Shown here in pieces: positions 4,007 through 62,756 of a stretch of DNA of 64,000 nucleotides. Source of the stretch: an uncultured Bacilli bacterium (lineage in GTDB: Bacteria; Bacillota_I; Bacilli_A; RF39; UBA660); NCBI GenBank assembly GCA_947629135.1, contig CANRCN010000001.1, positions 411-64,410 of the forward strand. Direction: 5' to 3'. A model generated the notes under the pieces. The model did not search any database. It had not been told where the DNA came from and saw only the letters and a list, made by a program, of their open reading frames with translations. Numbering within the stretch: the stretch's first letter is position 1; every line of letters begins with the position of its first letter. The translations under genes were made by a program, and so were the position numbers.

Positions 4007-4079
4007 AAGTTAATAAAAATTTAAAAAAATACTTGATTTTTTTGAGTAAATATATTATTCTTATTATGAGGTATAGATA

Positions 4080-4175
4080 ATGAATAAAAAAATGGAAATG
4101 AAAAAAACTGAATTTAAAAAAATTGAAATTATTCATGAAATGGATGTTCTTTTTCAATTTTCATTTTTTAGATAG
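4080..4175 (+). promoter_or_regulatory. 31-codon leader peptide ORF (MNKKMEMKKTEFKKIEIIHEMDVLFQFSFFR) whose stop codon sits inside the 5' arm of the downstream terminator: putative translation-coupled attenuator
   Basis: GAGG RBS 8 nt upstream of ATG 4080; TAG at 4173-4175 overlaps stem start at 4174. Confidence 0.35.
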
Positions 4176-4210
4176 AAGATACTTAGTTATATAGGTATCT
4201 TCTTTTTTTT
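4174..4210 (+). terminator. Rho-independent terminator/attenuator hairpin upstream of the permease gene
   Basis: 9-bp stem 'agaagatac'/'gtatcttct' (4174-4182 / 4195-4203), 12-nt loop, followed by T8. Confidence 0.55.
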
Positions 4211-4236
4211 AATCAATACCTAGAATGGAGGATTTG

Positions 4237-5547
4237 ATGAAAAATCAAAAAATGACAATTGACATCAATGAGAAACCACCAGTTGCCAAATGGATTGTTT
4301 TGGCATTTCAACATGTATTTGCTATGTTTGGAGCAACGATACTTGTTCCGATTTTAGTAAATGCAGCCGCAGGAAAGGAGGTTTTAACAATACCAGTTGC
4401 TTTAGTTACTTCAGGTATTGGTACTTTGATTTACATTTTATGTACAAAAGGAAAATCTCCAGTTTATTTAGGATCTTCATTTGCTTTTATTACTCCTATT
4501 GCAGCTGCTTACTTAAAGGGAGGAGTAGGTGGAGCTATGACAGGGATTATGGCTGTTGGTTTAATCTATGTTATAGTTGCAATTATTATTAAGTTTGTTG
4601 GAACTAATTGGCTTAATAAGTTATTACCACCTGTTATTATAGGACCTATGATTATGGTAATAGGACTAGGACTTGCTCCAAATGCTATTAGTCAGATTGG
4701 GCTTGCAAGTGGAACCCCACTTGACTATAAAGTAATTGTTGTTGCTTTAGTTTCATTTTTAGTAACAGCTCTTGTTATGACAAGATGTAAAGGATTTTTA
4801 AAAATTATACCTTTTTTAGTAGGAATTATTGCTGGTTATATTATGGCAGTTATCTTCGGAATGATTGATTTCAAACCAGTTGTTGATGCAGCTTTCTTCA
4901 GTATGCCTCATTTCTTAATCCCATTTGCATCATACAAACCAACCTTTAGTGCTATTCTAACAATTGCTCCAATTGCTCTTGTTACAATGTGTGAACATAT
5001 TGGAGATCATACGTCACTTAGTAATATAATAGGACGTGATTTAATAAAAGATCCAGGACTTGACAGAACTTTACTTGGTGATGGTATTGCAACTTTTGTA
5101 GCTGGTGCTTTAGGAGGACCTGCTAATACTACATATGGTGAAAATACTTCAGTTGTTGGACTTACAAAAGTAGCATCAGTTTGGGTAATTGGCCTTGCGG
5201 CTATTATTGCAATCATAATTGGCTTCTTAGGTAAATTTACAGCTTTAGTATCTACTATTCCTGATGCTGTACTTGGAGGTGTATCTTTACTTCTTTATGG
5301 ATTTATAGCAGTTAATGGATTAAAAGTTTTAATAAAAAATCAAATAGATTTTGAAAAACCTAAAAATGTTGTAGTAGCATCATCTATGTTAGTACTTGGA
5401 TTAGGAGGAGCTGCTGTTGCTATTGTAAGTGGAGATTTATCAATTACAATCTCTGGTATGAGTTTAGCAGCTATTGTAGGTATTATTTTAAATCTAATAT
5501 TACCAGATGAAAAAGAATCTAAAGAAAGTAAATCAAAAAGAAAATAA
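4237..5547 (+). CDS. pyrP: uracil permease, NCS2 family
   Basis: 'VAKWIVLAFQHVFAMFGATILVPILV' matches the UraA/PyrP N-terminal signature 'LQHLFAMFGATVLVP'; 12-14 TM helices; GGAGG RBS 5 nt before ATG 4237 (ORF track start 4225 lacks an RBS). Confidence 0.85.
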   Translation: MKNQKMTIDINEKPPVAKWIVLAFQHVFAMFGATILVPILVNAAAGKEVLTIPVALVTSGIGTLIYILCTKGKSPVYLGSSFAFITPIAAAYLKGGVGGAMTGIMAVGLIYVIVAIIIKFVGTNWLNKLLPPVIIGPMIMVIGLGLAPNAISQIGLASGTPLDYKVIVVALVSFLVTALVMTRCKGFLKIIPFLVGIIAGYIMAVIFGMIDFKPVVDAAFFSMPHFLIPFASYKPTFSAILTIAPIALVTMCEHIGDHTSLSNIIGRDLIKDPGLDRTLLGDGIATFVAGALGGPANTTYGENTSVVGLTKVASVWVIGLAAIIAIIIGFLGKFTALVSTIPDAVLGGVSLLLYGFIAVNGLKVLIKNQIDFEKPKNVVVASSMLVLGLGGAAVAIVSGDLSITISGMSLAAIVGIILNLILPDEKESKESKSKRK

Positions 5548-5582
5548 ATTTATATTATTCATATTAAAAAGTATAAAAAAAG

Positions 5583-5606
5583 GATAGTTTATGTACTATC
5601 TTTTTT
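5583..5606. terminator. bidirectional Rho-independent terminator between convergent pyrP (+) and lipoprotein operon (-)
   Basis: stem 'gatagt'/'actatc' with 6-nt loop, A7 upstream and T6 downstream. Confidence 0.5.
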
Positions 5607-5681
5607 CGACATTTAAAGTAACAATTATAGTTATTTTAAATTGATTTAATAATAAAATAATTTTAAAAAAGAGATAAGTAT

Positions 5682-6152
5682 CTATTCAATATCAATATAG
5701 TATTCAATACTAGAAATTGTATCTCCAACAACGATAAATTCAAGATGTGTATTATCTAGAGTATAGGTATAAGCATTATCTCTTTTTTCATAGTCATTAC
5801 CATAGGTTTTAGTTAAATTTTCTAAACTATCTCCAATTTTAATACCTTCAGTAGTTTTAACAGAATCATCAGTTAAATAAATAGTATATATTTTATCTTT
5901 ATCACCATCAGGAGTAGTTGTTATTTCATAATGATCATATGTATAAGTTTTATCAACACCTTGTCCTGCACAACTAGGAACTTCTGCATACCGAACTTCT
6001 TTACCATATTTAGAAGTTGAAAATTCTTCTCCTAAAATAAAATTCTTATCATTATAAGTAAAACTATAGACTTTATTTTCTTCTTTTTTTACTTCACTAC
6101 ATCCTGTAATTAATATACCTATTAGTAATAGAATAATTAATTTTTTCATCAT
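5682..6152 (-). CDS. lipoprotein (lipobox LITGC), last gene of the minus-strand acylation operon
   Basis: Signal peptide MMKKLIILLLIGILITGC with lipobox Cys; AGGAGA RBS; start overlaps the upstream gene stop (ATGA). Confidence 0.6.
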   Translation of the reverse strand: MMKKLIILLLIGILITGCSEVKKEENKVYSFTYNDKNFILGEEFSTSKYGKEVRYAEVPSCAGQGVDKTYTYDHYEITTTPDGDKDKIYTIYLTDDSVKTTEGIKIGDSLENLTKTYGNDYEKRDNAYTYTLDNTHLEFIVVGDTISSIEYYIDIE

Positions 6153-7159
6153 TCATCTCCTTTATTTTTATTATACACGGATAATTTCTGATTGTAAATA
6201 TTACTTATATGATTATCTAATCTATAATCAGTTAAATTATAATTATTTTTCAAAATATCCCCAAAATATGTGGATAATTTTTCAGCACCATATAAATTTA
6301 AATGTAAACCACCATCATAGGTATCATGATTATAATCTATACCTATTTCTTGAGCTTTTTCTAGAAGATTATAATAATCAAGATTATATGTATTAGCATA
6401 TTCAATTACTTGATCATTATATTCAGAATACCAATAAGGATAAACACTTGGAGCTTTTATTAAAACTAGTTTAATATGATTATTTTCACAAAGTTGTCTT
6501 ATTTTATCTAAGTATGATATAACATTATCTTTAAAAGTATAACTTCCTAATATCTTTTTAGTTGGTAAATTAGTAACTGGTTTTATATTTTTATTCATTA
6601 AATATCCATTATAAGTAACATTATTATCTGTAAATAAATTTTTAAAATCTTCACTAGTTAAAGAAGAAAATCTTGAATGATATCTAACAATTGGAAATAT
6701 ATAATCAAATATCGATTCTTCTTCTAACATAGAATTGTTTATCATTTCTATTTTTTCTTGAGACCATTTCATTTTATCAAGTGTTAAATGATTATAAGCT
6801 TCACTTACAGGTTCATTATATCTTAAAGCATTAACATTTAAGACTACTACCTTAGGAATTTCATATTTTAAAGTTTCTTTTAAAATTCCATAAGATTGCC
6901 AAATTAATTGTTGACTAGTTCCTCTAACATATGATGTTATTCCATAATTCTTATACATTATAAGAGGAGAGAAATTAGCATAAACTTCACAATCTCCAAT
7001 AAATATTACTTCATGATTTTTTTCTTCTTTATAATACTCTTTTATCATATGTCCTTCAATTAAATTTGTTTGGTATTTTGGAGAGACTAATTTATTTAAG
7101 AAAATAAAACATAGTATAAAAACAATTATAATTATTAATATTTTAAAATATTTTTTCAT
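6149..7159 (-). CDS. membrane-anchored DltD/AlgX-like SGNH-fold protein, partner of the adjacent MBOAT
   Basis: N-terminal TM anchor, 'IFIGDCE' GDS-like block, C-terminal 'DGGLHLNLYG' block shared with the paralogues at 37641 and 43171; sits immediately downstream of an MBOAT gene. Confidence 0.5.
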   Translation of the reverse strand: MKKYFKILIIIIVFILCFIFLNKLVSPKYQTNLIEGHMIKEYYKEEKNHEVIFIGDCEVYANFSPLIMYKNYGITSYVRGTSQQLIWQSYGILKETLKYEIPKVVVLNVNALRYNEPVSEAYNHLTLDKMKWSQEKIEMINNSMLEEESIFDYIFPIVRYHSRFSSLTSEDFKNLFTDNNVTYNGYLMNKNIKPVTNLPTKKILGSYTFKDNVISYLDKIRQLCENNHIKLVLIKAPSVYPYWYSEYNDQVIEYANTYNLDYYNLLEKAQEIGIDYNHDTYDGGLHLNLYGAEKLSTYFGDILKNNYNLTDYRLDNHISNIYNQKLSVYNKNKGDE

Positions 7160-7167
7160 AATCCCTC

Positions 7168-8448
7168 CTAAAACTTACTATAGATAAAATCTTGAACATT
7201 AAAACCTAATCCATATACTCCAAATAGTAAGATTAAAAGTATCATACTTCCTAAAAAAATTAGTTTAACTTCATCAGATTTATTATAAAGATAAGTTTTT
7301 ATTTTTTCATGTTTAATATCAACAATAATTAAAATTATTAAGGTTATAATAAGAACGATTATATTTACTAAATCAAGACCTAACTTTAAAATATTATTAA
7401 ATAAATTTAAATAATTTAAATTAGTAAATATACTTCCTAACATTTTAAAGGATGTTAAAGTATCTGGATAAATAAAGAAAATCCAAAGTAAAGAAACTAT
7501 TACAAAGTTTAAAATAATTTTTAGAGTTTTATATTTATCATTAGGTTTTCCTTGAAAAGCAACGATTATTCCATGAAATAATCCCCAGAAAAAGTAATTA
7601 ATTCCATGCCAAAGTCCTGAGATAATAAAAGTTATAATAATATTTATTTTAGCTCTAATTTTACTACAATGATTTCCTCCAAGAGGGATATAAAGATAAT
7701 CTCTAAACCATGAAGAAAGACTTATATGCCATCTTCTCCAAAATTCTTTTAAATTACGTGATAGGTAAGGACTATCAAAGTTTTCAGCAAGTTCGATTCC
7801 AATCATTTTACTAAAACCAATTACAATATCAATTCCACCTGAAAAATCAGCATATAACTGGAAAGAGTAGAGTAGTAGTGCTAGTAATACGTAAGCTCCT
7901 TGATAATTTAAATTAGAAGTAATTGTCGTAACAATTAAAGCAATTCTTGATGCTATTACATATTTTTTAAATAATCCCCAAGATATTCTAATTAATCCGT
8001 TAAAAAGATTATCTTTTTTGAGTTTCTTCTTTTTATATAAAGTTTTACTTAAATCATTATATCTATTGATAGGGCCTATTATTAAATAAGGAAAATAGAA
8101 AACAAAAAGTAAATAATTTAAAAGATTTTTTTCGGGTTTAATTTTTCCTCTATAAACATCTATTAAATAGGCCAATACTTGAAATGTATAATAAGATATT
8201 CCTAAAGGAATTAAAATATTTTTATTATTAACTAAGTTAAAAAAATTATTAAAAGTTACAACCTTAAAAAAAACTAAGATAGAAACATTTAAAATAATAG
8301 TTCCTATAAATATTAGTTTTTTATGCTTATTTTTGTGATTAATAGCAGCTAAATATGTTGTTAAAGCTGATATTAAAATATAAATTAGATTAGAAAGTCC
8401 AAAAGAAGCAATTAAGATAATACTAAAAATTAAAATAATTATATTCAT
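7168..8448 (-). CDS. MBOAT-family membrane O-acyltransferase (DltB/AlgI/PatA-like)
   Basis: Polytopic protein with MBOAT His motif 'WRRWHISLSSWFRDYLYIPLGGN'; translationally coupled to the upstream gene. Confidence 0.85.
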   Translation of the reverse strand: MNIIILIFSIILIASFGLSNLIYILISALTTYLAAINHKNKHKKLIFIGTIILNVSILVFFKVVTFNNFFNLVNNKNILIPLGISYYTFQVLAYLIDVYRGKIKPEKNLLNYLLFVFYFPYLIIGPINRYNDLSKTLYKKKKLKKDNLFNGLIRISWGLFKKYVIASRIALIVTTITSNLNYQGAYVLLALLLYSFQLYADFSGGIDIVIGFSKMIGIELAENFDSPYLSRNLKEFWRRWHISLSSWFRDYLYIPLGGNHCSKIRAKINIIITFIISGLWHGINYFFWGLFHGIIVAFQGKPNDKYKTLKIILNFVIVSLLWIFFIYPDTLTSFKMLGSIFTNLNYLNLFNNILKLGLDLVNIIVLIITLIILIIVDIKHEKIKTYLYNKSDEVKLIFLGSMILLILLFGVYGLGFNVQDFIYSKF

Positions 8449-10265
8449 TAGTTAGCCTCCGGCCATTTTGAATGATCCCAATCACGTCCTTGTAAATGAG
8501 CAAGTCTTTCAGCATCAGTTGCAGCACTGATCATATTATGTAAGTTAGTAGGAGTTGCATCACTATGTCTCCATTTACCATTAATTTTTACTAAACACCA
8601 ATAATGAGATCTATTAGTTGTATAAATAATTTGAACTTCATAACCAGCTTTTTGAAGTAAAGCTTTGTATATTTCAGCATGAACCATACAATTTCCTCGC
8701 CAGTTTGTAAGACCAAACCAGATCTTATCGCTTCCTCCATCTTCATGGGTGTATCGAATATTTTTCATAATCCATTGTCTAATAGATTCATAGTTTGAAC
8801 CAGTTTTAGCAAAGGCAGAGTTTAATTTAGCATTTCTATCTGAAGCATCATATCTTACATAAATTTGTCTTTTGGAAGTTACTTTGTTACCAGATTTGTC
8901 AACCGCTGTATAATAAGCATAGTAAGTACCAGTAGCATTAGTATTAACTTTGCTTGAATCAACACTAAATTGAACATTACCATCTTTTGCATCATAAGCT
9001 GATACTCCATAAGTATAATTAATCTTTGAATATTTATTAACACTCATATAAGATAATCCTCTAAATACAGGTGGTTTTTTATCTTCAATTATTGATAAAG
9101 TAGCTTTTTTTTCTATTTTATTTCCATATTTATCTACGGCTTCAATAGTTATTTCTTGATTCCCTAATTTCTTATAAGTAATTTTTGTTTTTAAAGTTGT
9201 AGTAAATTCTGATGCATCTTTACAACTTTTAATAAACTTATCCTTAGAAACACTAGTTTGATCATTATAAATTGTAACATTTTGAAGCTCTAATTCTGGA
9301 GCTTTAGTATCTTGAACTTTAATCTTTGTTTTAAATTCTAAATCATTATTTTTAATAATTATTTCATATTCTCCAACACCTTGTTTATTTATATTGTCTA
9401 TTTCTTCTTGATTTAAAAATTCTCCTGTTTCTTTAACATTGAATAAGATATCTTCTTTGGTTAAAGGACTTCCAAGTTCTTTAATAACTTCTTGCTTTGA
9501 CATAGCTATTCTTAAAGTTTTAGTAGTTTCTGTTATATTGTTATATTTATCTTTTACTTGTATTTTAACTTTATAATCACCATATTTAGTTATATTAGGT
9601 TTAGTAAGAGATGTAACTTTTGTTTCTGATATGTCTTCAATACTCTCAATAAAGTCTTCAGGATTAAATTCATAATCAATATTAGCATAGTAATCTTTAA
9701 ATTTAACTTTAGGCTTAGTTGTATCAACTAATTTAAGCTTAATTGTTTTGGTTTGGTTAAAAACTTTAAGTTTGATATCATAACTTCCTACTTTAGTTAA
9801 ATCTATCTTTTTAATGTCAGTTATGAAGCTTGTTTTGTAGACAACTTTACCACGTTTATAAAAATCGCTTACATCTATTTTTTTAACTCCAGCTTCTAAA
9901 GTAACACTTGGCTTTAATCCGAATAATATAATAAATAAAATTGTAGAAATACAAAGTAATGAACAAATAGAACTTAGTATTATCAAGACAATCTTTTTTT
10001 TAGATTTTCTTTTAGGTTCATCTTTTTTAGAATTAATATCTATTTTTATTTCCTTTACAGCTTCTTTAGTTTTTTTCTTTTCTTTAATATTAGTAGTTTC
10101 CTTTTTTTCGACTTTTTCTACTTCATTTTTAGGAGTTTTATTTTGAGTCTTTTTTTCAGAATTAGTTATTTTAGAAGTATTTTTAGAGGTTACTTTTTTT
10201 GAATTATTCTTTTTTTTAGTTTGTGAATTTTTATTTTTTACATTTTTTTCTTTTTTTGCACTCAT
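8448..10265 (-). CDS. membrane-anchored surface protein: Lys-rich N-terminus, TM, Ig-like repeats, C-terminal transglutaminase-like Cys/His/Asp domain
   Basis: C-terminus 'GNCMVHAEIY...SHYWCLVK...RHSD' fits a transglutaminase-like cysteine-protease core; AAGGTGG RBS 8 nt before ATG at 10265 (GTG at 10277 is the alternative start). Confidence 0.5.
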   Translation of the reverse strand: MSAKKEKNVKNKNSQTKKKNNSKKVTSKNTSKITNSEKKTQNKTPKNEVEKVEKKETTNIKEKKKTKEAVKEIKIDINSKKDEPKRKSKKKIVLIILSSICSLLCISTILFIILFGLKPSVTLEAGVKKIDVSDFYKRGKVVYKTSFITDIKKIDLTKVGSYDIKLKVFNQTKTIKLKLVDTTKPKVKFKDYYANIDYEFNPEDFIESIEDISETKVTSLTKPNITKYGDYKVKIQVKDKYNNITETTKTLRIAMSKQEVIKELGSPLTKEDILFNVKETGEFLNQEEIDNINKQGVGEYEIIIKNNDLEFKTKIKVQDTKAPELELQNVTIYNDQTSVSKDKFIKSCKDASEFTTTLKTKITYKKLGNQEITIEAVDKYGNKIEKKATLSIIEDKKPPVFRGLSYMSVNKYSKINYTYGVSAYDAKDGNVQFSVDSSKVNTNATGTYYAYYTAVDKSGNKVTSKRQIYVRYDASDRNAKLNSAFAKTGSNYESIRQWIMKNIRYTHEDGGSDKIWFGLTNWRGNCMVHAEIYKALLQKAGYEVQIIYTTNRSHYWCLVKINGKWRHSDATPTNLHNMISAATDAERLAHLQGRDWDHSKWPEAN

Positions 10266-10299
10266 ATTATTAACCACCTTACATTAATTTCTTGAGAAA

Positions 10300-35130: not shown

Positions 35131-36373
<1,243 letters not shown>

Positions 36374-37521: not shown

Positions 37522-38600
37522 ATGAATAAAAAGTTAACTAATTGTAAACACGGGGGGGGGGTTATTCCACAGAAAAGTTCACTTCTAAAAAATATAAAAA
37601 TTATTGCTTTAAAATTTTAATATCTGGTATTTTTGCTTTTTTGATATTAAATGTTATTTTTAGTTTTTATTTTAATCCTCCAACTTCTGATAAGGAATAT
37701 GAAAAATCTTCTTTTTTAGTAACTCCCTTTAAATATGAACCAATGGAAAGGTTTACATATGCTCTTGAAGGACATGGTCATGGAAGAGTTAATAATGATG
37801 GATATATAAATGTAGAGGATTATGATTCTAATAAAGAAGTTAATATATTAATGGTAGGGTCATCACAGTTTGAAGCTTTTCAAGTTGATATTAAAAATTC
37901 TGTTACCTATAGATTAAATGAACTGTTGAAAAATAAGTTTGTTTATAATATAGGAGTATCAGGTAATGCATTTCCAGAAAGTATAACTAATATAGCCCCT
38001 GCTATTATTAAATATAAACCTACTGATTACATAATTTTAGAAATGTCAGATGTTAAATATTCAGATCAAGAACTTAGCAAAGTTCTCGAAGAAGAAGATA
38101 ATAAAAAAGATTCTGAAAGTTCTTCAGGTTCAAAATCAGTTAAAAATAACAATGTTATTAGAAAATTTTATAGAAATAGTTCATTTTTAAGATTGTTATG
38201 GAGAAAATTAGAAGAGTTAACCGATAATCGAGAGGCAAATTTACCTGAAGCAAAAGAAGAATTTAATGAAAAACTTACAGGAGAAGTTTTAAATAAAATA
38301 CGTACTATAGTTGAAAATAAAGTTAAAGTAATAATTGTATACCATCCTTCTGTTTCTTTAGAATCTGATGGTAATTTGATACTTTTAAATAATGAAAATG
38401 TAGAAAAATTTTCAAAGTTATGTACAGAAAATGGAATATATTTTCTTGATATGAGTGATAGATTTAGTGCAGAATATAAAAAAAATAATATTTTACCATA
38501 TGGATTTAGTAATACATCAGTAGGAAAAGGACATTTAAATAAATACGGACATGAAATGATAGCTGAAGAATTATATAAATTAATCAAGGAGGAAAAGTAG
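37522..38600 (+). pseudogene. DltD/AlgX-like SGNH-fold membrane protein (MBOAT partner) with a poly-G tract between the predicted start codon and the TM anchor; out of frame in this sequence (phase-OFF)
   Basis: ATG 37522 reads MNKKLTNCKHGGG into G10 and stops at 37620; the long ORF (37548 onward, track 37641..38600) is in the +2 frame and encodes the K-rich/TM anchor, 'MVGSSQ' and C-terminal 'GKGHLNKYGHEM' blocks; G11 or G8 would fuse them. Confidence 0.5.
37552..37561. repeat. poly-G homopolymer (G10)
   Basis: direct read; exceptional in ~25% GC DNA. Confidence 0.95.
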
Positions 38601-38601
38601 T

Positions 38602-39993
38602 ATGTCGTTTGCATCAATAGATTTTTTAATATTTTTTATAGTTGTAATATTGGGAACATTAATTATTCAAAAATTTTTCTCTAAAAGAGTGAAAGAAGTA
38701 TTCTTACTTATTGCAAGTTACTTTTTTTATGGATATTGGGATTGGAGATTTTGTTTCCTATTATTATTTGTAACCTTATCTTCGTATTTTACAGCAAAAT
38801 ATAAAGATAAAAAAGGAATATATATAATAGGAATAGTTATACCATTAATTGTACTAGGATTCTTTAAATATTTTAATTTCTTTTTGGAATCAGTATCAAG
38901 TATAATAGGTCATGATTTAGGAATATTAAATATAATTTTACCAGTTGGAATATCATTTTATACATTTCAAGCTTTAAGTTATGTAATTGATGTAAAAAGA
39001 GAAAAGATAGAAGTTGAAGATGACTTTATAAGATTAGCTTTATATTTAAGTTTCTTTCCACAACTTGTTGCGGGACCAATTGTAAGGGCAGCTGATTTCT
39101 TACCTCAATTAAAAGAAGAAAGAAAAGTAAGTTCAGAAAATTTTAAATATGGTATTCAGCTAATGGCATTTGGATTATTCAAGAAGATTGTAATAGCTGA
39201 TCATTTATCAGTTTTTGTAGATGATGTATTTAAAGTACCAGTAGCATTCCATTGGGCAACGATAGTTCTAGCCGTAATTGCTTATTCAATTCAAATATAT
39301 TTTGATTTTTCAGGATATTCTGATATAGCAATTGGATGTGCTAAATGTTTAGGATATGATTTTAATTCTAACTTTAATTTACCATATATTTCTCAAAATG
39401 TAACAGAATTTTGGAGAAGGTGGCATATAAGTCTATCAACATGGTTAAAAGAATATTTATATATTCCTCTAGGAGGAAATAGAAAAGGTAAAGTTAGACA
39501 ATATATCAATTTATTTATAACTATGTTACTTGGTGGATTATGGCATGGAGCAAGTTGGACATTTGTATTTTGGGGTGGTTTAAATGGATTAGCTTTGTGT
39601 ATAGATAAAATGATACCTAAGAAAAAAGAAAAGAATTTATTTGATAAGGTTATTGGTGTAATATTAACTTATACATTTATATGTTTTACATGGATATTCT
39701 TCAGGGCAGATAACTTTACAAATGCATGGGATATAATAAAAGGAATATTTACTTTACAAAAAGGGATAAGTCAACCTTTTGTATGGGCTTTTGTTGCAAT
39801 TATATTATTAGTTATATTTACAATAGGAGCAATTATAAAATCTCATAAGAATAAAGATAAATATGTAGATGGGTATTATCCAATAGTTAATTTAAATACT
39901 GTATTTGGATTAACAATATTCTTTGTTGTAATAGGATTAATTTTTTGTTTAGCTTTTACAGGCGAACAACCATTTGTATATTTTCAATTTTAA
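38602..39993 (+). CDS. MBOAT-family membrane O-acyltransferase (second copy)
   Basis: 'WRRWHISLSTWLKEYLYIPLGGN' MBOAT His motif; start 1 nt after the DltD-like stop. Confidence 0.85.
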   Translation: MSFASIDFLIFFIVVILGTLIIQKFFSKRVKEVFLLIASYFFYGYWDWRFCFLLLFVTLSSYFTAKYKDKKGIYIIGIVIPLIVLGFFKYFNFFLESVSSIIGHDLGILNIILPVGISFYTFQALSYVIDVKREKIEVEDDFIRLALYLSFFPQLVAGPIVRAADFLPQLKEERKVSSENFKYGIQLMAFGLFKKIVIADHLSVFVDDVFKVPVAFHWATIVLAVIAYSIQIYFDFSGYSDIAIGCAKCLGYDFNSNFNLPYISQNVTEFWRRWHISLSTWLKEYLYIPLGGNRKGKVRQYINLFITMLLGGLWHGASWTFVFWGGLNGLALCIDKMIPKKKEKNLFDKVIGVILTYTFICFTWIFFRADNFTNAWDIIKGIFTLQKGISQPFVWAFVAIILLVIFTIGAIIKSHKNKDKYVDGYYPIVNLNTVFGLTIFFVVIGLIFCLAFTGEQPFVYFQF

Positions 39994-40082: not shown

Positions 40083-41099
40083 ATGAAAAAAAAGTTAACA
40101 ATTAGTCAATCTAGGGGGGGGCATAGTAAAAAAGAGTATAAAGGTATTGATATAACAAAATTTATTATGGCAATTCTAGTAATTGCTTGTCATGCAAATT
40201 TATATACCAATTATGATGGAACAATAGGAACAATCTATCTTTTGGTACTTAGTTGTGTTGTTCCATATTTCTTTATAACTAATGGTTTCTTTATGTATAA
40301 AGATGAAGAAACCTTTGAAAATAAACTTTGGGATAATCTAAAAAAAATTATTAAATTATATATAATTTGGAATATAATTTATTTACCTATTAGTATTTAT
40401 GATTATGCTGTAAATGGGTATTCTGTTATAAAAGCAATAATTCTTTATATTCGAGATTTTCTGTTTATAGGTGATCACTTTTTTTCTTGGCCACTTTGGT
40501 ATTTACTAGGATTTATATATGCCTTGATAGCATTAATTATATTAAAAAAATTAAAATTAAATGATAAAAAAATATTTATAATTACGATGTTAACCTATAT
40601 ATTTGCAAATGTAATGGAATATTTAACATCTATTGGTTCTAATAATATTGTTGTAAAATTATTTAGTTATGTCTTTGGTGATGGAAGAGTATTTACTGGA
40701 ATATTTTTAGTTACACTTGGAATACTTATAAAAAAATACAATGATAAAATTAAGATATCTAAAAAAATATTATTATTGCTAATTATAGTGTGCTTTGCAA
40801 TATCAGTTATAATTCCAAATAAGATAAGCGAAGTTGGATTATATATATTTCTATTTTTATTAGTCAAAGAACTTAATAATATTAAATTTAATACAATTAA
40901 CTTTAGAAGGTGTAGTACAATATTTTATTTTGTACACATGATTAATTTATTTATATATATGTTAATTGTTGGGATAGATAATACTTATGGTGTTTATGGG
41001 TTTCTAATAACAATAGTTGCTTGTATGGTAGAATCTATTATTATAATATTTATTCAAAATAAGTGGAATCCAAAAATTTTAAAGGAATTGTTTAATTAA
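40083..41099 (+). CDS. acyltransferase-3 (OatA/WecH-like) family membrane O-acyltransferase with in-frame poly-G (G8) at codons 11-13
   Basis: 'KGIDITKFIMAILVIACHA' acyl_transf_3 N-terminal motif, ~10 TM; G8 at 40114-40121 encodes Arg-Gly-Gly in frame (phase-ON). Confidence 0.6.
   Translation: MKKKLTISQSRGGHSKKEYKGIDITKFIMAILVIACHANLYTNYDGTIGTIYLLVLSCVVPYFFITNGFFMYKDEETFENKLWDNLKKIIKLYIIWNIIYLPISIYDYAVNGYSVIKAIILYIRDFLFIGDHFFSWPLWYLLGFIYALIALIILKKLKLNDKKIFIITMLTYIFANVMEYLTSIGSNNIVVKLFSYVFGDGRVFTGIFLVTLGILIKKYNDKIKISKKILLLLIIVCFAISVIIPNKISEVGLYIFLFLLVKELNNIKFNTINFRRCSTIFYFVHMINLFIYMLIVGIDNTYGVYGFLITIVACMVESIIIIFIQNKWNPKILKELFN
40114..40121. repeat. poly-G homopolymer (G8) within coding sequence
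   Basis: direct read. Confidence 0.95.
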
Positions 41100-41118: not shown

Positions 41119-42300
41119 GTGATAGAAATGATATATATATATGAAGCAAAAAGAAGTCCAATAGGGAAGTTTAAAAAAGGTTTTATAAATACTGATTGCA
41201 GTATGCTTGGAATGCAAGTTGCTAAAAGTATTATTGAAAATACGAAAATTGATGTAAACAAAATTGATAAAGTTATATTAGGAAATGTTTTATCGGCTGG
41301 TTTAGGACAAAATATTGCAAGACAAATATTAATAAATAGTGGAATACCTGATGATAAAACAGCTTATTCTATTAATATGGTTTGTGGAAGTGGAATGAAA
41401 GCTGTTCATGATGCTTTTAATGATATAAAATTAGGAAATGCTCATTGCATTTTAGCAGGTGGAGTTGAAAATATGAGTATGGCTCCATTATTAAAAGATA
41501 AGTACGATGATAATAAAGAGTTAAAGGATAGTATGTTATATGATGCTTTAACGGATGTATTTTCAAATGAGCATATGGGGATAACGGCTGAGAATGTTGC
41601 AGAAAAATATAATGTAACTAGAGAAGATCAAGATAAATTTGCATATGATTCACAACATAAAGTACAAACGGCAATTGAAAATAAAAAGTTTGATGATGAG
41701 ATAGTTCCAATAAAGACTTTTGAAGGAGAAGTAATAAGTTTAGATGAATTTCCAAGATTTAATACTGAAATGGAAAAACTATCAGCTTTAAAACCAGCTT
41801 TTAAAGAAAATGGAACAGTAACTGCTGGAAATGCTTCTGGAATTAATGATGGCTGTGCTTTGTTATTAATTGGAGATGAAACAATTAGTTTAAAACCTAA
41901 AGCTGAAATTATAGATTTTGCTGAAGCTGGATGTGATCCTAATTATATGGGAATGGGACCATTATATGCAATATCTAAATTATTAGAAAAAAATAATTTA
42001 AATATTAATGATATTGATTTATTTGAAATAAACGAAGCCTTTGCTTCTCAAAGTATAGCAGTTATAAGAGAATTATCTAAAAAATACAATATTAATTTAG
42101 AAGAATTTAACTCTAAAATTAATGTCAATGGTGGAGCAATTGCTTTAGGACACCCAGTTGGTGCATCAGGTGCAAGAATTATAACTACTTTAGTTCATGA
42201 AATGAAAAGAAGAAATTCAAAATATGGTGTAGCTTCACTTTGTATAGGTGGTGGTATGGGAATAGCTGTATTATTAAAAAATATGTGTGAGGAGGATTAA
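41119..42300 (+). CDS. acetyl-CoA C-acetyltransferase (thiolase II, PhaA/ThlA-like)
   Basis: Thiolase signatures: N-terminal 'EAKRSPIGKF', catalytic Cys 'NMVCGSGMKAV', C-terminal 'NVNGGAIALGHPVGASGARI' and 'SLCIGGGMG'. Confidence 0.85.
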   Translation: MIEMIYIYEAKRSPIGKFKKGFINTDCSMLGMQVAKSIIENTKIDVNKIDKVILGNVLSAGLGQNIARQILINSGIPDDKTAYSINMVCGSGMKAVHDAFNDIKLGNAHCILAGGVENMSMAPLLKDKYDDNKELKDSMLYDALTDVFSNEHMGITAENVAEKYNVTREDQDKFAYDSQHKVQTAIENKKFDDEIVPIKTFEGEVISLDEFPRFNTEMEKLSALKPAFKENGTVTAGNASGINDGCALLLIGDETISLKPKAEIIDFAEAGCDPNYMGMGPLYAISKLLEKNNLNINDIDLFEINEAFASQSIAVIRELSKKYNINLEEFNSKINVNGGAIALGHPVGASGARIITTLVHEMKRRNSKYGVASLCIGGGMGIAVLLKNMCEED

Positions 42301-42301
42301 T

Positions 42302-43015
42302 ATGTTAGAAGGAAAAATTGCAATAGTAACTGGAGCATCTCGTGGTATCGGATTAGAAATAGCAAAGTTGTTTACAAAAGAGGGAGCAAAAGTTATTGGT
42401 ACATATAATCATAATAAAACAGATATAGATGGTGTAGATTTTTATAAATTAGATGTTTCTAACAGAGAAGAAGTTAAAACATTTGTAGATACTATTATTA
42501 ACAAGTATAATAAAATAGATATTCTTGTTAATAATGCTGGAATAACAGCTGATGCATTAACTAAAAAAATGTCTGATGAAATGTTTGATAAGGTAATAAA
42601 TACTAATCTTACAGGAACCTATAATATAACTAAACTAATTGGTCCAATTATGCAAGATAATCATAGTGGTAGTATAATTAATATTACATCAATAGTTGGT
42701 ATATATGGAAATATTGGACAAGTAAATTATGCAGCTTCAAAAAGCGGTATTATAGGAATGACCCATACTTGGGCAAAAGAATTTGCTATGAAAGATGGAA
42801 ATGTTAGAGTTAATGCAATAGCACCAGGATATACAATGACAGAGATGCTTAAAACAGTTCCAGAAGAATTATTAGACAAGTTTAAAAGTATGACTTTATT
42901 GAAAAGATTAGCTGAACCTGAAGATATAGCTAATGCAGCATTATTTTTAGCAAGTGACATGGCTAGTTATATAACAGATGAAATATTAAATGTTAATGGT
43001 GGCATGAAATTATAA
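42302..43015 (+). CDS. SDR-family 3-oxoacyl reductase (FabG/PhaB-like acetoacetyl-CoA reductase)
   Basis: 'TGASRGIG' cofactor motif, 'NAG' and 'YAASK' catalytic motif; GAGGAGG RBS 6 nt before ATG 42302. Confidence 0.85.
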   Translation: MLEGKIAIVTGASRGIGLEIAKLFTKEGAKVIGTYNHNKTDIDGVDFYKLDVSNREEVKTFVDTIINKYNKIDILVNNAGITADALTKKMSDEMFDKVINTNLTGTYNITKLIGPIMQDNHSGSIINITSIVGIYGNIGQVNYAASKSGIIGMTHTWAKEFAMKDGNVRVNAIAPGYTMTEMLKTVPEELLDKFKSMTLLKRLAEPEDIANAALFLASDMASYITDEILNVNGGMKL

Positions 43016-43051
43016 AAATATATACTTGAAAAAAAGGAAAGTGATTATATT

Positions 43052-44094
43052 GTGAAAAAGAATATAGAAAAAGTTAACAATAAGTCACCTCGGGGGGGGG
43101 GGCTTATAAAAAATATATAATAATATTTAAATTAATATTATCTTGCTTTATTGCATTTATAATATTAAATTTGTTTTGTATTTTTTATTATAATATACCA
43201 GTACATTCTACTTCTAAAGATGGTGCAACTGATTACGTTTGGGAACCAAACAAGTTTTATTCACGTTGGACTGAAGGCTTTGGATATGGAAGAACGAACA
43301 ATGAAGGTTATTATGATTATAAAAAATATAAAAAGAGCGATAATGTTGATATATTAGTTATGGGATCTTCACATATGGAAGCAGCTCAAATACAACAAAA
43401 TAAATCTACATCAGGATTGCTTGATAATATGTTAAAAGATTATTATGTTTATAATATAGGAATATCGGGTCATACATTTATAACCTGTGTTAGTAATCTT
43501 GAAGCTGCTATTACTAAATATAATCCAAATAAATATATTATTATTGAAACTAACACAGTTACTTTTTCAGATAGTGATTTGAACAATGCATTGAACAATT
43601 CAGTTGAAGAAATTCCTTCTTATGATGGAGGTGTAATTGGTATACTACAGCAAAATCAACTTTTAAGATTATTATATCATCAAGCAGAGTCTTTTCTTAA
43701 TTTAGAAAATGAAGGAGATATAATTCCAAATAGTCAAACTAACTTTGATACTAATTTTAACTTATTAAATCAACTTTTTATAAAAATGCAAGAAAAAGCA
43801 GAAAAAAATAATATTAAAATAATAATAATGTATCATCCAAGTACAACTTTGAATAAAGATGGAAGTTTAAATTTGTCAAGTGAAAATGAAAATATAGAAG
43901 AATTTTCGAAATTATGTAAAGAAAATGGAATATATTTTCTTGATATGAGTGATAGATTTAGAGAAGAATATGAAAAGAATTATATTCTACCATATGGATT
44001 TAGTAATACATCAGTAGGCACAGGTCATTTAAATAAATATGGACATGAAATGATTGCTGAAGAATTATATAAATTAATCAAGGAGGAAAAGTAG
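43052..44094 (+). pseudogene. second DltD/AlgX-like SGNH-fold paralogue, again with a poly-G tract between the predicted start (GTG 43052) and the TM anchor, out of frame in this sequence
   Basis: GTG 43052 reads VKKNIEKVNNKSPRGGG into G11 and stops at 43120; the long ORF (open from 43084, track 43171..44094) is in the +2 frame; the C-terminal 60 aa are near-identical to the 37641 paralogue; G12 or G9 would fuse them. Confidence 0.45.
43092..43102. repeat. poly-G homopolymer (G11)
   Basis: direct read. Confidence 0.95.
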
Positions 44095-44275
44095 AGTATC
44101 GCTTTTATCAATAGACTTTTTAATATTTTTTATAGTTATAATACTAGGAACATTTATTATTTAAATATAGAAGTATTCTTACTTATTGCAAGTTACTTTT
44201 TTTTAATATTGGATTTAATATTTTGTTTTCTATTTCATATTTTACAGCAAAATATATGTATATTTCAAATTTTAA
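44095..44275 (+). pseudogene. degenerate 5' remnant of an MBOAT gene (partial duplicate of 38602-38800)
   Basis: Nucleotide-level similarity to the start of MBOAT 38602 ('atcaatagactttttaatattttttatagtt', 'gaagtattcttacttattgcaagttacttttttt', 'tattttacagcaaaatata') with internal deletions and stops. Confidence 0.55.
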
Positions 44276-59101: not shown

Positions 59102-60835
59102 TTGGCTACAAAATTTGAAAGAATTTACAATGATATTAAAATCGAATTAAAAGAGATTAAGGATAATAACAAATATAATAATATTTCTCAAGCATATGGT
59201 CATTTTATTTTAAAAATGCTATTTGATTTAACTGATGAAGAAGCATACGATTGCTGCACGGATGGTTCTAATGATAATGGTATAGATGCAATATATATTG
59301 AGCCAGATAAAAGAGTACACTTTTTTCAATTTAAATTTCCAGAAACTGAGAAAAATATCTCGAAAGGTGTATCAGAAGATGAAATATTAAAATTGTGTCA
59401 TGGTGTTCAATCGTTTGTTTCACCAGAAGAAATTTTTAATGAAAATATTTGGAATGATTTATTGAAAGATAAAAGGCAGGAATTTTTAGCTGCTGATTTA
59501 TGTGATATAAAATTGTGGATAGTAAGGTATTCTAATCAGGAAATTAGTAATTCAGCGGAATCTATTATTAATAATTATATGATCGGATACAAAAGAGAGA
59601 CTGGTAATAAAATCGATAAAGAAATTTTTTTAGCAATGGAATGCTTGAATTTATATGAATCAAGAGCTAAAAACATTTGGCCTGATTTTACATTGCCTTA
59701 TGTAAAATCTTTGACTCCATTTAATGATGAAAAAACTAGTATTGCGAGTGCATATGTTTCTTTAAATAGCATATACAATACATTTAGTAAAATTCAAAAT
59801 ACAGTGTTTGAAGGAAATGTAAGATTTTTAAATCCAAATTCTAAAATAAACGATGGAATTAGGGAAACTATATTAAATGTACCTGAGAACTTCCATTTGT
59901 TAAATAATGGAATAACTATTGTATGTAATGAATGTTTAGATATAAATGCAAAATCATATTATAATGTTAAGTGTGGCTCAATTATTAATGGAGCCCAAAC
60001 TGTCGGAACTATAATAAATACTTTATCATCATTAACTGAAGAACAAAGATGTGTATATGAGAAATCTTTTGTATTTGTTAAAATTGTTTCTTTTAATAAA
60101 GATACTAAATTAATAAATGACATGGTATATACTTTAAATACCCAAAATCAAATGAAAAATTCTTATACTTTAGCTAATGATATGATAGTAAAAAATTTAC
60201 AAACAAAAATAAATAAGGAAACTCCTTATTTTCTTGAAGTTAAAAATAACGAATATAATTATTGTAAAAGTAGTTATAAATCGTTTGATAAACTATCTAA
60301 AAACAAAATTGATATTGAAACATTTATTCAAGTTTATACTACATTTTATAATATAAATGATATGGCAGCATTATCTAAAAATAATAAAGCAATTTTATTT
60401 ATGAATGAAAACATACAAAAAATTATTAATGAATTAAAATATGAAGAATCTTTATTATCCTATAAAGTATATGTGCAATTAATGAATATAATAAAAGAAT
60501 ATAGGGCTTATAGAAAAAAATCAGAGAAAATTGAAATATTAAATATTTTAGATATAGATGAAAATGATATAGATGAATATAGATATTTAAATACTGGCAA
60601 TTTTATCATATTATATGCTTTGGGAATAATTTATTGTGAAAAGGGATTAGATCCAGAAAAGAATATGATTCCTGTTATTAAAGCTTTAAGATTATTATTT
60701 AAAAAAGAAAAAAATATTTCTAATGCAACAAGAATAAAAGAAACCTTTGATAGAGTTGAACGTTTTGTTAAAAAATTTAAAATAGATAATGATATTATAG
60801 TTGTGCCAACAAAAGTGGTACTATCGAAATTATAG
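59102..60835 (+). CDS. AIPR-family abortive infection (phage resistance) protein
   Basis: 577 aa; AIPR hallmark 'SIINGAQTVGTIIN' (I-N-G-a-Q-T) mid-protein and N-terminal nuclease-like region with 'DGSNDNGIDAIYIE'. Confidence 0.6.
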   Translation: MATKFERIYNDIKIELKEIKDNNKYNNISQAYGHFILKMLFDLTDEEAYDCCTDGSNDNGIDAIYIEPDKRVHFFQFKFPETEKNISKGVSEDEILKLCHGVQSFVSPEEIFNENIWNDLLKDKRQEFLAADLCDIKLWIVRYSNQEISNSAESIINNYMIGYKRETGNKIDKEIFLAMECLNLYESRAKNIWPDFTLPYVKSLTPFNDEKTSIASAYVSLNSIYNTFSKIQNTVFEGNVRFLNPNSKINDGIRETILNVPENFHLLNNGITIVCNECLDINAKSYYNVKCGSIINGAQTVGTIINTLSSLTEEQRCVYEKSFVFVKIVSFNKDTKLINDMVYTLNTQNQMKNSYTLANDMIVKNLQTKINKETPYFLEVKNNEYNYCKSSYKSFDKLSKNKIDIETFIQVYTTFYNINDMAALSKNNKAILFMNENIQKIINELKYEESLLSYKVYVQLMNIIKEYRAYRKKSEKIEILNILDIDENDIDEYRYLNTGNFIILYALGIIYCEKGLDPEKNMIPVIKALRLLFKKEKNISNATRIKETFDRVERFVKKFKIDNDIIVVPTKVVLSKL

Positions 60836-60867
60836 TTTAGTAAAAAATTATAAATAAGTGTTTGAAA

Positions 60868-60890
60868 GGGAATAAAAATTCTCTTTTTTT
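60868..60890 (+). terminator. possible Rho-independent terminator after the AIPR gene
   Basis: stem 'gggaat'/'attctc' (one G-U), AAAA loop, T7. Confidence 0.35.
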
Positions 60891-61169
60891 ATACTTTTTA
60901 GAAAAAATTTAAACCATTAAGATAGTTTTTAAATGGTATTAGAGCTATTACCTAACAAGAAAATGAGTAGTCTTTTAATCAAATATAAACATAAAATTTA
61001 TGGAGGTGAATTTTAAAAAATGAATATAAAAGAAACTTTCGATAATGATAAAAATTTGGTTGATTTGATAGAAGAATATTTAAAAATAATGCTATTTAAA
61101 GAGAGAGACTCCTAGTTATGAATTATAGTGAATATACTTGTGAAGTTATGCATTTAAAAGGAGTTGTAA

Positions 61170-62756
61170 GTGTATAGCAATATAATACAATCGCCAAATT
61201 TTTATAGAGTAGGTTTATATATAAGATTATCAGAAAGTGATGAAGGTAAGTCTTATGAATCAGAAAGTGAAAGTATTATTAATCAAAGAAATTTATTAAT
61301 GAGTTTTGTAAAGCAAAATGAATTTACCTTTGTTGATGAGTATATTGATGATGGATTTACTGGTACTAATTTTGATAGACCTGGCTTTAAAAGATTACTT
61401 GAAGATATTGAAAACGGAAGAATAAATTGTGTCATAACAAAGGATTTATCTAGACTTGGTAGAAATTATGTTACTTGTGGTTATTATGTAGATGAATATT
61501 TTCTTCTAAAAAAAGTTAGATATATTGCTGTACTTGATCAAGTAGATACTTTTTTAAATAATGTTGGTAACGAAATGATACCTTTTAAATCAGTATTTAA
61601 TGATATGACAAGTAGAGATAATTCTAAAAAGATACGTTCTATTTTAAGAAATAAAAAAGAGGATGGAAAATTTATTGGAAGTGAACCTAGCTTTGGTTAT
61701 ATGCGAGATCCAGAAGATAAAGGACATTTATTACCAAATCCCGAAACTGCTTTTATTGTTAAAAAAATATTTGAAATGGCAAATAGTGGTATAAGTGTTA
61801 GTGATATTGCAAGTTATCTTAATGATTGTAAATATCCAACACCAAGTTTATACAAAAAGAAAGAAGGCTCAAAGCAAAAAATTAATCCAATATGGACTGT
61901 TTCATCAGTAAAAAAAATACTAAGAAATCAAATGTATACAGGTGATATGGTACAAAATGTCCAAACTAAAATATCATACAAATCTCAAAAGAAAGTTGCT
62001 CTTAATAAAGAAGCATGGATAATTGTTCCAGATACTCATGAACCATTAGTTAGTAAAGAAATATTTAATAAAGTTCAAAGTAATGTTAAAAGAAAGCAGA
62101 AAACACAAACTGATAGAGAAAAAAGATTATTTGAAAATCTTATTTATTGTCAGGAATGTGGTAATACTTTAACAGTTACTTACCGAAAAAATCATGATTA
62201 TTGGACTGTTAATTGTAATAGATATTCAAGAGATCCAAGAAGACATTTATGTTATCCTCATTTTATGCCTTATGATAAATTAGAAGAAGCACTATTAAGT
62301 ACTATTAAAAGTACTTGTAAGAAATATTTGGATGAGATTGATGTTAAATCGTTAGCACAGCTTATAAATGATAAAAACATTTCTAAAGAAAGTTCAACAG
62401 AAGAAATTAATTTTTTAAATAAAAAAATTAAAGAATACAATACTAAAATTGATATGCTATATGATGATAAATTTAAAGGTAATATTTCGGAAGATACTTA
62501 TAAAAGATTATCAAGAGAAACAGAAATATTATTAAATCAATCTAAATCTAGAATAGAAGAATTACAAAAAGTAGATAAAAAGAAAAAAGAATCTACAAAG
62601 GAAGTGCAAAACTATGAAGAAAAGATTAAGAAATTAATAAATCTTGATAATCCAAGTAGAGAATTATTACAATCCATTATTGACAAGATAGTAATTGATA
62701 AAGATAGAAACATTGAAATTTTATATAAATTTAGTTTATTAAATGACTTTGATTAA
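61170..62756 (+). CDS. large serine recombinase (resolvase/invertase catalytic domain + recombinase domain + zinc ribbon + coiled coil)
   Basis: N-terminal 'RVGLYIRLSESDEG' with the catalytic Ser, 'DLSRLGRN' motif, zinc-ribbon 'CQECGNT...C..C', long C-terminal coiled coil; AAAGGAG RBS 6 nt before GTG 61170. Confidence 0.85.
   Translation: MYSNIIQSPNFYRVGLYIRLSESDEGKSYESESESIINQRNLLMSFVKQNEFTFVDEYIDDGFTGTNFDRPGFKRLLEDIENGRINCVITKDLSRLGRNYVTCGYYVDEYFLLKKVRYIAVLDQVDTFLNNVGNEMIPFKSVFNDMTSRDNSKKIRSILRNKKEDGKFIGSEPSFGYMRDPEDKGHLLPNPETAFIVKKIFEMANSGISVSDIASYLNDCKYPTPSLYKKKEGSKQKINPIWTVSSVKKILRNQMYTGDMVQNVQTKISYKSQKKVALNKEAWIIVPDTHEPLVSKEIFNKVQSNVKRKQKTQTDREKRLFENLIYCQECGNTLTVTYRKNHDYWTVNCNRYSRDPRRHLCYPHFMPYDKLEEALLSTIKSTCKKYLDEIDVKSLAQLINDKNISKESSTEEINFLNKKIKEYNTKIDMLYDDKFKGNISEDTYKRLSRETEILLNQSKSRIEELQKVDKKKKESTKEVQNYEEKIKKLINLDNPSRELLQSIIDKIVIDKDRNIEILYKFSLLNDFD

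Follow-up and report, generated by a model that had tools for sequence, protein, structure and literature searches.

We analysed a 64,000-nucleotide window from the genome of an uncultured Bacilli bacterium of the rabbit gut (GC content 23.7%), in which a polysaccharide locus occupies positions 11–53 kb (about 40 kb) on one strand. Within this locus, and on the plus strand throughout, lie an FrhB-like gene (35131–36373), an SGNH-family gene that we call P1 (37522–38600), an intact MBOAT gene of 463 aa (38602–39993), an Acyl_transf_3 (AT3) gene (40083–41099), a thiolase (acetyl-CoA acetyltransferase, 41119–42300), a FabG/PhaB-like reductase (42287–43015) and, directly downstream of the reductase, a second SGNH-family gene, P2, which extends from a GTG at 43052 to a stop codon at 44092–44094. 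The MBOAT is a candidate membrane acyl-transfer partner of P1 and possibly of P2. The thiolase, which lies between the AT3 gene and P2, and the reductase (together 41119–43015) might, speculatively, supply a 3-hydroxyacyl donor such as 3-hydroxybutyryl for polysaccharide acylation. P2 is followed by a decayed 5′ remnant of an MBOAT gene (44095–44256, about 160 nt, homologous to 38601–38803) that has lost its start codon and gained several indels. The FrhB-like gene is split by an (AT)19 repeat (35477–35514) into ORFs at 35131–35526 and 35474–36373, and its frame would be restored by (AT)20 or (AT)17. Elsewhere in the window, on the minus strand, 6149–10277 holds a further putative acylation module that has no homopolymer tract, with a second DltB-like MBOAT (7168–8448) between ORFs of 336 and 609 aa. 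Toward the end of the window, an AIPR/MzaE-like defence-associated protein (59102–60835) and a large serine recombinase (61170–62756) hint at a mobile or defence island (59102–62756) adjoining the polysaccharide locus.

The start of P2 contains an uninterrupted run of 11 G residues that separates a short leader from the rest of the protein. Read directly, the gene starts with GTG at 43052–43054, behind a Shine-Dalgarno-like AGGAAAG (43035–43041) at a rather long spacing of 10–12 nt, and the frame translates as VKKNIEKVNNKSPRGGGLIKNI before ending at TAA 43118–43120, 22 codons in all (43052–43120). The G11 tract, the presumed slippage site, occupies exactly 43092–43102 and begins at codon 14. 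These positions confirm those given in an initial sequence-only reading, which had also placed the membrane anchor and body in another frame and predicted that G12 or G9 would switch the gene ON. Editing the tract length gives the same answer: the frame stays open for 347 codons at G12 and 346 at G9, compared with only 18–22 codons at G10, G11 and G13, so that P2 is OFF as assembled. The restored 347-aa product consists of the leader, a transmembrane (TM) helix and an SGNH domain. In the body frame, a K-rich juxtamembrane stretch and single TM helix (AYKKYIIIFKLILSCFIAFIILNLFCIFY) span 43102–43188, as delimited by AlphaFold2 and by alignment with the N-termini of homologues, and a putative catalytic SGNH-fold domain, assigned from fold, alignment and stop count, spans 43189–44094. 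AlphaFold2 predicts a helix at residues 2–29. Between the body-frame stop at 43081–43083 and a TTG at 43171 there is not one ATG, GTG or TTG in that frame, and TTG 43171 itself falls within the TM helix. The tract therefore truly severs the anchor, and the same lack of upstream starts accounts for the anchorless 307-aa ORF P0001 of the annotation. P2 thus has two features expected of a contingency gene: an uninterrupted homopolymer of at least about 8 nt in the 5′ coding region, where a change in repeat units toggles between a full-length and a truncated product and leaves the remaining ORF intact.

P1 shares this layout of leader, Gly-codon tract and anchor, as the sequence-only reading had recognized. 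It starts at ATG 37522, carries G10 at 37552–37561, and is likewise OFF as assembled, opening to 359 aa at G11 and 358 aa at G8 when the tract is edited; the two proteins are 44% identical. The AT3 gene carries a third tract, G8 at 40114–40121, and is ON as assembled. All other G runs in the window are at most 5 nt long and the longest C run is at most 4. Under a first-order Markov model of the whole window, 0.04–0.05 G or C runs of at least 8 nt are expected where three are observed, and the expectation for runs of at least 11 nt is 0.0002. The three tracts begin at nucleotides 31, 32 and 41 of their ORFs (codons 11–14), and all are in acylation genes, three consecutive modification genes within 6 kb. 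The P2 tract is not due to chance.

The protein encoded by P2 belongs to a large and sparsely annotated SGNH family. Its sole Pfam match is Lipase_GDSL_2, below threshold (17.9 vs. 32.9 bits), and its sole NCBIfam match is the LA_2486 GDSL family (24.7 vs. 300 bits); neither collection yields a match to a DltD, PatB or AlgX sequence model, and a sequence-profile search of the PDB returned nothing useful. The predicted structure has the SGNH alpha/beta fold. A search of 5.8 billion proteins recovered 528 homologues, mostly 330–340 aa, in which a single TM helix follows a short N-terminus rich in K and the GSSHME and GHLNKYGH motifs are invariant; the most specific source annotation among the 528 is "SGNH/GDSL hydrolase family protein". 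Both motifs, which would correspond to block-I Ser and the C-terminal His, vary little or not at all in alignments of 24–44 homologues including P2. The genes around P2 (35–47 kb) encode nitroreductase-like, MBOAT, AT3, thiolase and reductase proteins, and this interval contains no DltA-type ligase or carrier-protein ORF, nor are dltA or dltC found nearby. With neither a DltD model match nor a dlt operon, P2, labelled DltD-like in the sequence-only reading, is not demonstrably a DltD; it is a generic SGNH enzyme, nearer to PatB than to DltD.

Genomic context suggests a partner for this enzyme. An MBOAT gene lies directly downstream of P1 and of the family members in L002, L097–L100 and L101 (L numbers denote loci from other assemblies), and because family members adjoin MBOAT genes, P2 putatively serves as the extracytoplasmic SGNH protein that pairs with an acyl-translocating membrane enzyme, as PatB does with PatA or AlgX with AlgI. 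P2 itself has only the decayed MBOAT stub as its downstream neighbour. SGNH proteins are able to work with either MBOAT or AT3 proteins, and an AT3-only protein can stand in for an MBOAT in feeding PatB (PMC9558356), so P2 could still pair with either the MBOAT (38602) or the AT3 protein (40083). As a TM-anchored SGNH protein encoded inside a polysaccharide locus, with MBOAT and AT3 genes near, it probably acts on a surface structure; the acyl-transfer chemistry and the choice of partner remain putative assignments.

The tracts share a leader motif that appears to be conserved at the nucleic-acid level. Five N-terminal tracts picked by their G run alone (P1, the AT3 gene and P2 in the window, the P2-like gene of L007 and the AT3 gene of L014) all have the order ATG, A-rich stretch, AGTTAAC, N5, GT(C/A)A(A/C)(C/T), N2–3, Gn. 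In P2 the motif reads AGTTAAC-AATAA-GTCACC (43072–43089), 2–3 nt 5′ of the tract, and the other copies lie at 37532–37549 (P1), 40093–40110 (AT3), L007 5926–5943 and L014 9442–9459. Allowing up to two mismatches, the window contains three matches, all beside the three G tracts, and AAAGTTAAC likewise occurs three times, always at the G tracts; GTTAAC alone is unremarkable (13 found vs. 18 expected). Among 83 loci, the exact motif occurs only beside tracts. The motif spans two unrelated protein families (SGNH and AT3), and its GTTAAC falls in two frames: aaG-TTA-ACx in P1 and the window AT3 gene, GTT-AAC in P2, L007 and L014. This argues for conservation of the nucleic acid itself, DNA or RNA. 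Both hexamers are identical between the AT3 orthologues, yet four adjacent spacer bases all differ; hexamers kept in two frames with a free spacer suggest a nucleic-acid-level function. The hexamers are direct repeats 11 bp apart, one helical turn, a geometry that suggests a candidate protein-binding site; the duller alternative is common descent by shuffling of leaders. The motif has decayed in L030, where the tract is absent, and the tracts of L037 have no such motif, which shows that a tract can exist without it. The motif also holds, on the minus strand, a −35-like TTGACA/TTGACT; we do not count it as evidence for a promoter, since a sigma-70 and terminator scan of 36.3–44.7 kb was uninformative, with 80 promoter-like sites where 74 are expected.

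A metagenome scan for the leader motif followed by at least seven G residues found 13 loci. Eight of these (L084, L085, L086, L088, L089, L092, L095 and L096; G7–9, for example L092 727–895) are low in GC (25–35%), and each has a ribosome-binding site (RBS) and an ATG 30–45 nt upstream of the motif. The other five (L087, L090, L091, L093 and L094; 40–51% GC) have no RBS/ATG context and were set aside as chance matches. Four loci (L086, L088, L089 and L092) reach far enough downstream to show what comes next: behind the short ORF lies a strong hairpin with its U run, and behind that a large gene for a TM surface protein. In all four, exactly one of the three post-tract frames is open into or through the hairpin, and at the assembled tract length the ribosome's frame stops at least 38 nt short of it; by a rough estimate, the chance of such open frames is p ~0.02–0.1. 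As a lead, these leaders may form a phase-variable attenuator like that of Streptococcus gallolyticus pil1, for which phase variation through a leader peptide and terminator has been demonstrated (PMC3894217). The metagenomic leaders resemble pil1 in combining a short ORF, a slippery repeat and one frame that runs into a terminator before a surface-protein gene, and differ in that the repeat is poly-G, not GCAGA. A possible pairing between the SD-to-start segment and the second hexamer is present in the OGYF01-contig group (L085, L089, L092, L095 and L096); judged by eye, it does not extend to leaders in general and was dropped.

P2 differs from both pil1 and the metagenomic loci in that no terminator lies between tract and body and there is no separate leader ORF, the tract being fused to the enzyme's N-terminus. 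Because the leader is fused in frame to the enzyme and no terminator intervenes, the P2 switch would be translational. We tentatively consider, as a possibility that we hold with less than even confidence, that an uncultured low-GC lineage of gut Bacilli installs a portable module (RBS, start, A-rich stretch, AGTTAAC-N5-GTCAAC, poly-G) on unrelated surface genes, which might offer a site for a protein that co-regulates the switches or tunes their slippage. On the same reading the module would come in two forms, one fused in frame to the enzyme (SGNH, AT3) and the other an upstream ORF leading into a terminator before surface-protein genes, as in the metagenomic loci.

Related genomes present these tracts in many states. 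The closest genomes are MAGs from rabbit gut that carry the label "uncultured Bacilli" and have a GC content of about 24%. The P2-bearing strain is rare: one further contig, L001, comes from another sample (about 2× coverage, 1 SNP in 1667 bp), and look-ups of the exact upstream reductase and P1 ORF proteins found no additional assemblies of it. The P2 tract is G11 in both the window and L001, hence invariant in length across two assemblies (n = 2). In L007, L002 and L003, a P2-like gene (57% identical) begins ATG-MKNRKVNPLSTT-G8 and is OFF, needing G7 or G10, with an intact MBOAT downstream; L002 and L003 agree on G8 for this gene. The AT3 orthologue in L014 carries G9 and is OFF, compared with G8 and ON in the window. 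L037 has a P1-like gene (G10, ON), a hexapeptide acetyltransferase (LbH; G10, ON) and an FrhB-like orthologue whose G10 (3969–3978) occupies the site of (AT)19 in the window and is likewise out of frame. As a separate observation, L004 has a G9 tract (4759–4767) near the 3′ end of a hexapeptide-repeat acetyltransferase, where G8 gives the canonical tail ...VGGVPAKKI... and G9 a shorter alternative C-terminus; this would be C-terminal switching, not ON/OFF.

Two relatives do not have an intact tract. The P1 orthologue in L030 (85% nucleotide identity) is an intact gene from which the tract is absent. The closest P2 homologue, in L101 (67% identical), carries the P2 leader in frame through an interrupted GGGAGGGG into AYKF..., which confirms the ON frame of P2; this homologue is decaying, having lost 62 nt of its TM region in addition to the interruption of its tract. 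Among P-type sites, therefore, the states across genomes are G11, G8, G10, interrupted and absent. The sequence-only reading had looked to orthologues for the tract and its length, and held that absence or interruption of the tract in close relatives with a conserved protein would speak against a switch. The varied lengths and states support it, and the tract-less L030 gene and the interrupted L101 tract count in part against it, while such losses fit the gain and loss of contingency tracts. As far as these assemblies go, homologous tracts of varied length, in both phases and with locked or lost alleles, are the pattern that would be expected of contingency loci. Homologues from higher-GC organisms lack a tract in every case examined, and L097–L100 (47–51% GC, short N-termini), considered as further switches, were rejected on account of alternative GTG/TTG starts and no homopolymer.

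Together, these observations lead us to favour, with somewhat better than even confidence, the reading that P2 carries a translational phase-variation switch of the slipped-strand type, caught in the OFF state, with G11 as its hypermutable element. The view that this is a selected switch, not a random homopolymer, gains from the third tract in the AT3 gene, the common motif, the varied states among relatives and the intact body ORF. Ribosomes would start at GTG 43052, translate the leader of 13 codons and then read the tract as Gly codons; with G11 they would emerge out of frame and terminate at 43120, and any re-initiation at TTG 43171 would yield a protein without its membrane anchor. Replication slippage that adds one G or removes two would put leader and body in one frame, that of a type-II membrane protein of 347 aa. 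Outside the cytoplasm, the SGNH domain of this protein would then acylate the surface polysaccharide that the 11–53 kb locus builds, the acyl group being passed across the membrane by the MBOAT (38602–39993) or the AT3 protein (40083–41099). Slippage at independent repeats, G11 (P2), G10 (P1), G8 (AT3) and (AT)19 (FrhB-like), would produce mixed decoration states of one polysaccharide. We infer that the P2 tract varies in length within populations, and the selective agent acting on the switch would presumably be phage or host immunity.

The most serious rival, which we judge to have perhaps one chance in a few, is that P2 is an early pseudogene, the remnant of a displaced or duplicated SGNH-MBOAT cassette in which the G11 frameshift was the first inactivating lesion. 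The history of the locus lends this some weight. The 3′ ends of P1 and P2 (38314–38600 vs. 43805–44094) are near-identical, with about 90% DNA identity over the last ~180 nt, and the remainder has diverged to 44% protein identity; for dN/dS, this shared end has too few differences and the remainder is saturated. In L101 a P2-type gene is followed by an MBOAT (1489–2013) that is 94% identical to the window MBOAT, and L030 has its P1-MBOAT cassette (4026–6492) elsewhere within an otherwise syntenic locus. From the 3′-end identity, the likeness of the L101 MBOAT and the cassette position in L030, SGNH genes appear to be swapped as cassettes while the MBOAT behind them is conserved, and P2 resembles one whose MBOAT was lost. 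Turnover of this kind, with P1-type and P2-type genes ahead of near-identical MBOATs and cassettes that shift position, could leave debris. The MBOAT partner behind P2 is destroyed, P2 is OFF in both assemblies, its GTG start is weak and its SD distant, and its closest homologue, L101, lacks the TM region and has an interrupted tract.

Against decay stands the condition of P2 itself. Its body frame (from 43102) has no stops in 330 codons of 24%-GC DNA, compared with 28 and 52 in the other two frames, and it retains all 30 columns that are invariant in the 44-sequence family alignment (which includes P2). The adjacent MBOAT stub has accumulated indels, and P2 has none. The tract is uninterrupted with a conserved leader motif ahead of it, P1 has the same OFF architecture beside an intact MBOAT, and other membrane acyltransferases are usable by SGNH partners (PMC9558356).

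A second alternative, which we think improbable, is that assembly miscalled the homopolymers, the true modal lengths being G12 in P2 and G11 in P1, with both genes ON in reality and their split ORFs artefacts. Most sequencing platforms make errors in long G runs, all three split genes would need one more unit (one G in P1, one G in P2 and one AT in the FrhB-like gene), and the coverage of L001 is just ~2×. On the other hand, two independent assemblies agree on G11, and two on G8 for the L007 homologue, which requires −1 or +2 and not +1. Three other tracts from the same study, the AT3 G8, the L037 P1-like G10 and the L037 LbH G10, are in frame, which argues against systematic undercalling. Even a real G12 tract would still be hypermutable.

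Equally improbable is that full-length P2 is made from a G11 template by RNA-polymerase slippage or ribosomal frameshifting, as constitutive low-level synthesis and not heritable ON/OFF switching: long homopolymers do promote transcriptional slippage and the conserved leader motif could in principle be a recoding signal, but orthologous tracts vary in length and frame among genomes, as DNA-level switching predicts, most slippage sites known in bacteria are runs of A or T, and neither an Rfam family at leader or tract nor a stimulatory RNA structure turned up when the window and ten motif-bearing loci were scanned.

The proposed slipped-strand switch on P2 has close counterparts among known systems. 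The poly-G genes of the Campylobacter jejuni capsule and LOS, and those of Helicobacter and Neisseria, carry G/C tracts of about 8–11 nt within coding regions, in C. jejuni in an AT-rich genome (PMC6321876, PMC5808241, PMC2823697). As in the C. jejuni phasome, the genes affected here modify surface glycans, several independent switches occur per polysaccharide locus, ON and OFF alleles are found among relatives, and tracts are sporadic. Unlike C. jejuni, the host is not a proteobacterium but belongs to a low-GC, wall-forming "Bacilli" lineage of uncultured gut bacteria, and the tracts of the window, known so far from sequence alone, are fixed at codons 11–14 behind a DNA leader that crosses gene families. 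We know of no equivalent of such fixed-position tracts with a cross-family leader in the Campylobacter, Helicobacter or Neisseria phasomes.

Phase-variable acylation of surface glycans also has precedents. A repeat in the 5′ coding region toggles a surface-glycan acylating enzyme in Haemophilus influenzae OafA and Neisseria meningitidis Lot3 (both of the AT3 family) and in Escherichia coli K1 NeuO, and oafA and NeuO are known phase-variable O-acetyltransferases (PMC9558356, PMC3046976). The window AT3 gene with its G8 tract is a direct analogue of the phase-variable AT3 O-acetyltransferases. P2 differs from OafA, Lot3 and NeuO in repeat type and organism, and in being neither an AT3 nor a hexapeptide protein but a TM-anchored SGNH protein of the MBOAT-partner kind. 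We compared it with the MBOAT and SGNH systems PatA/PatB, AlgI/AlgJ/AlgX, WssH/WssI and DltB/DltD (PMC9558356); unlike PatA/PatB, AlgI/AlgX and DltB/DltD, P2 combines the lack of a model match to DltD, PatB or AlgX with the absence of dltA/dltC and a decayed MBOAT of its own.

The switch type itself is therefore well known (PMC6321876, PMC9558356, PMC3046976). What is new here is the lineage, the density of switches and a leader common to several gene families. SSR-driven contingency loci are textbook material for a few Gram-negative pathogens and, to our knowledge, are barely documented in uncultured gut commensal Bacillota. The finding matters for how "frameshifted pseudogenes" are read in MAG annotation, and the leader motif, which recurs across families and in two switch architectures, would offer a handle for finding switches computationally. 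A factor that bound the motif, if there is one, would place phase variation under a further, new level of control. With four slippery repeats on acylation and pyruvylation-type genes, a clonal population of this organism could show many versions of its polysaccharide, and surface variation of this kind matters for phage escape and immune recognition.
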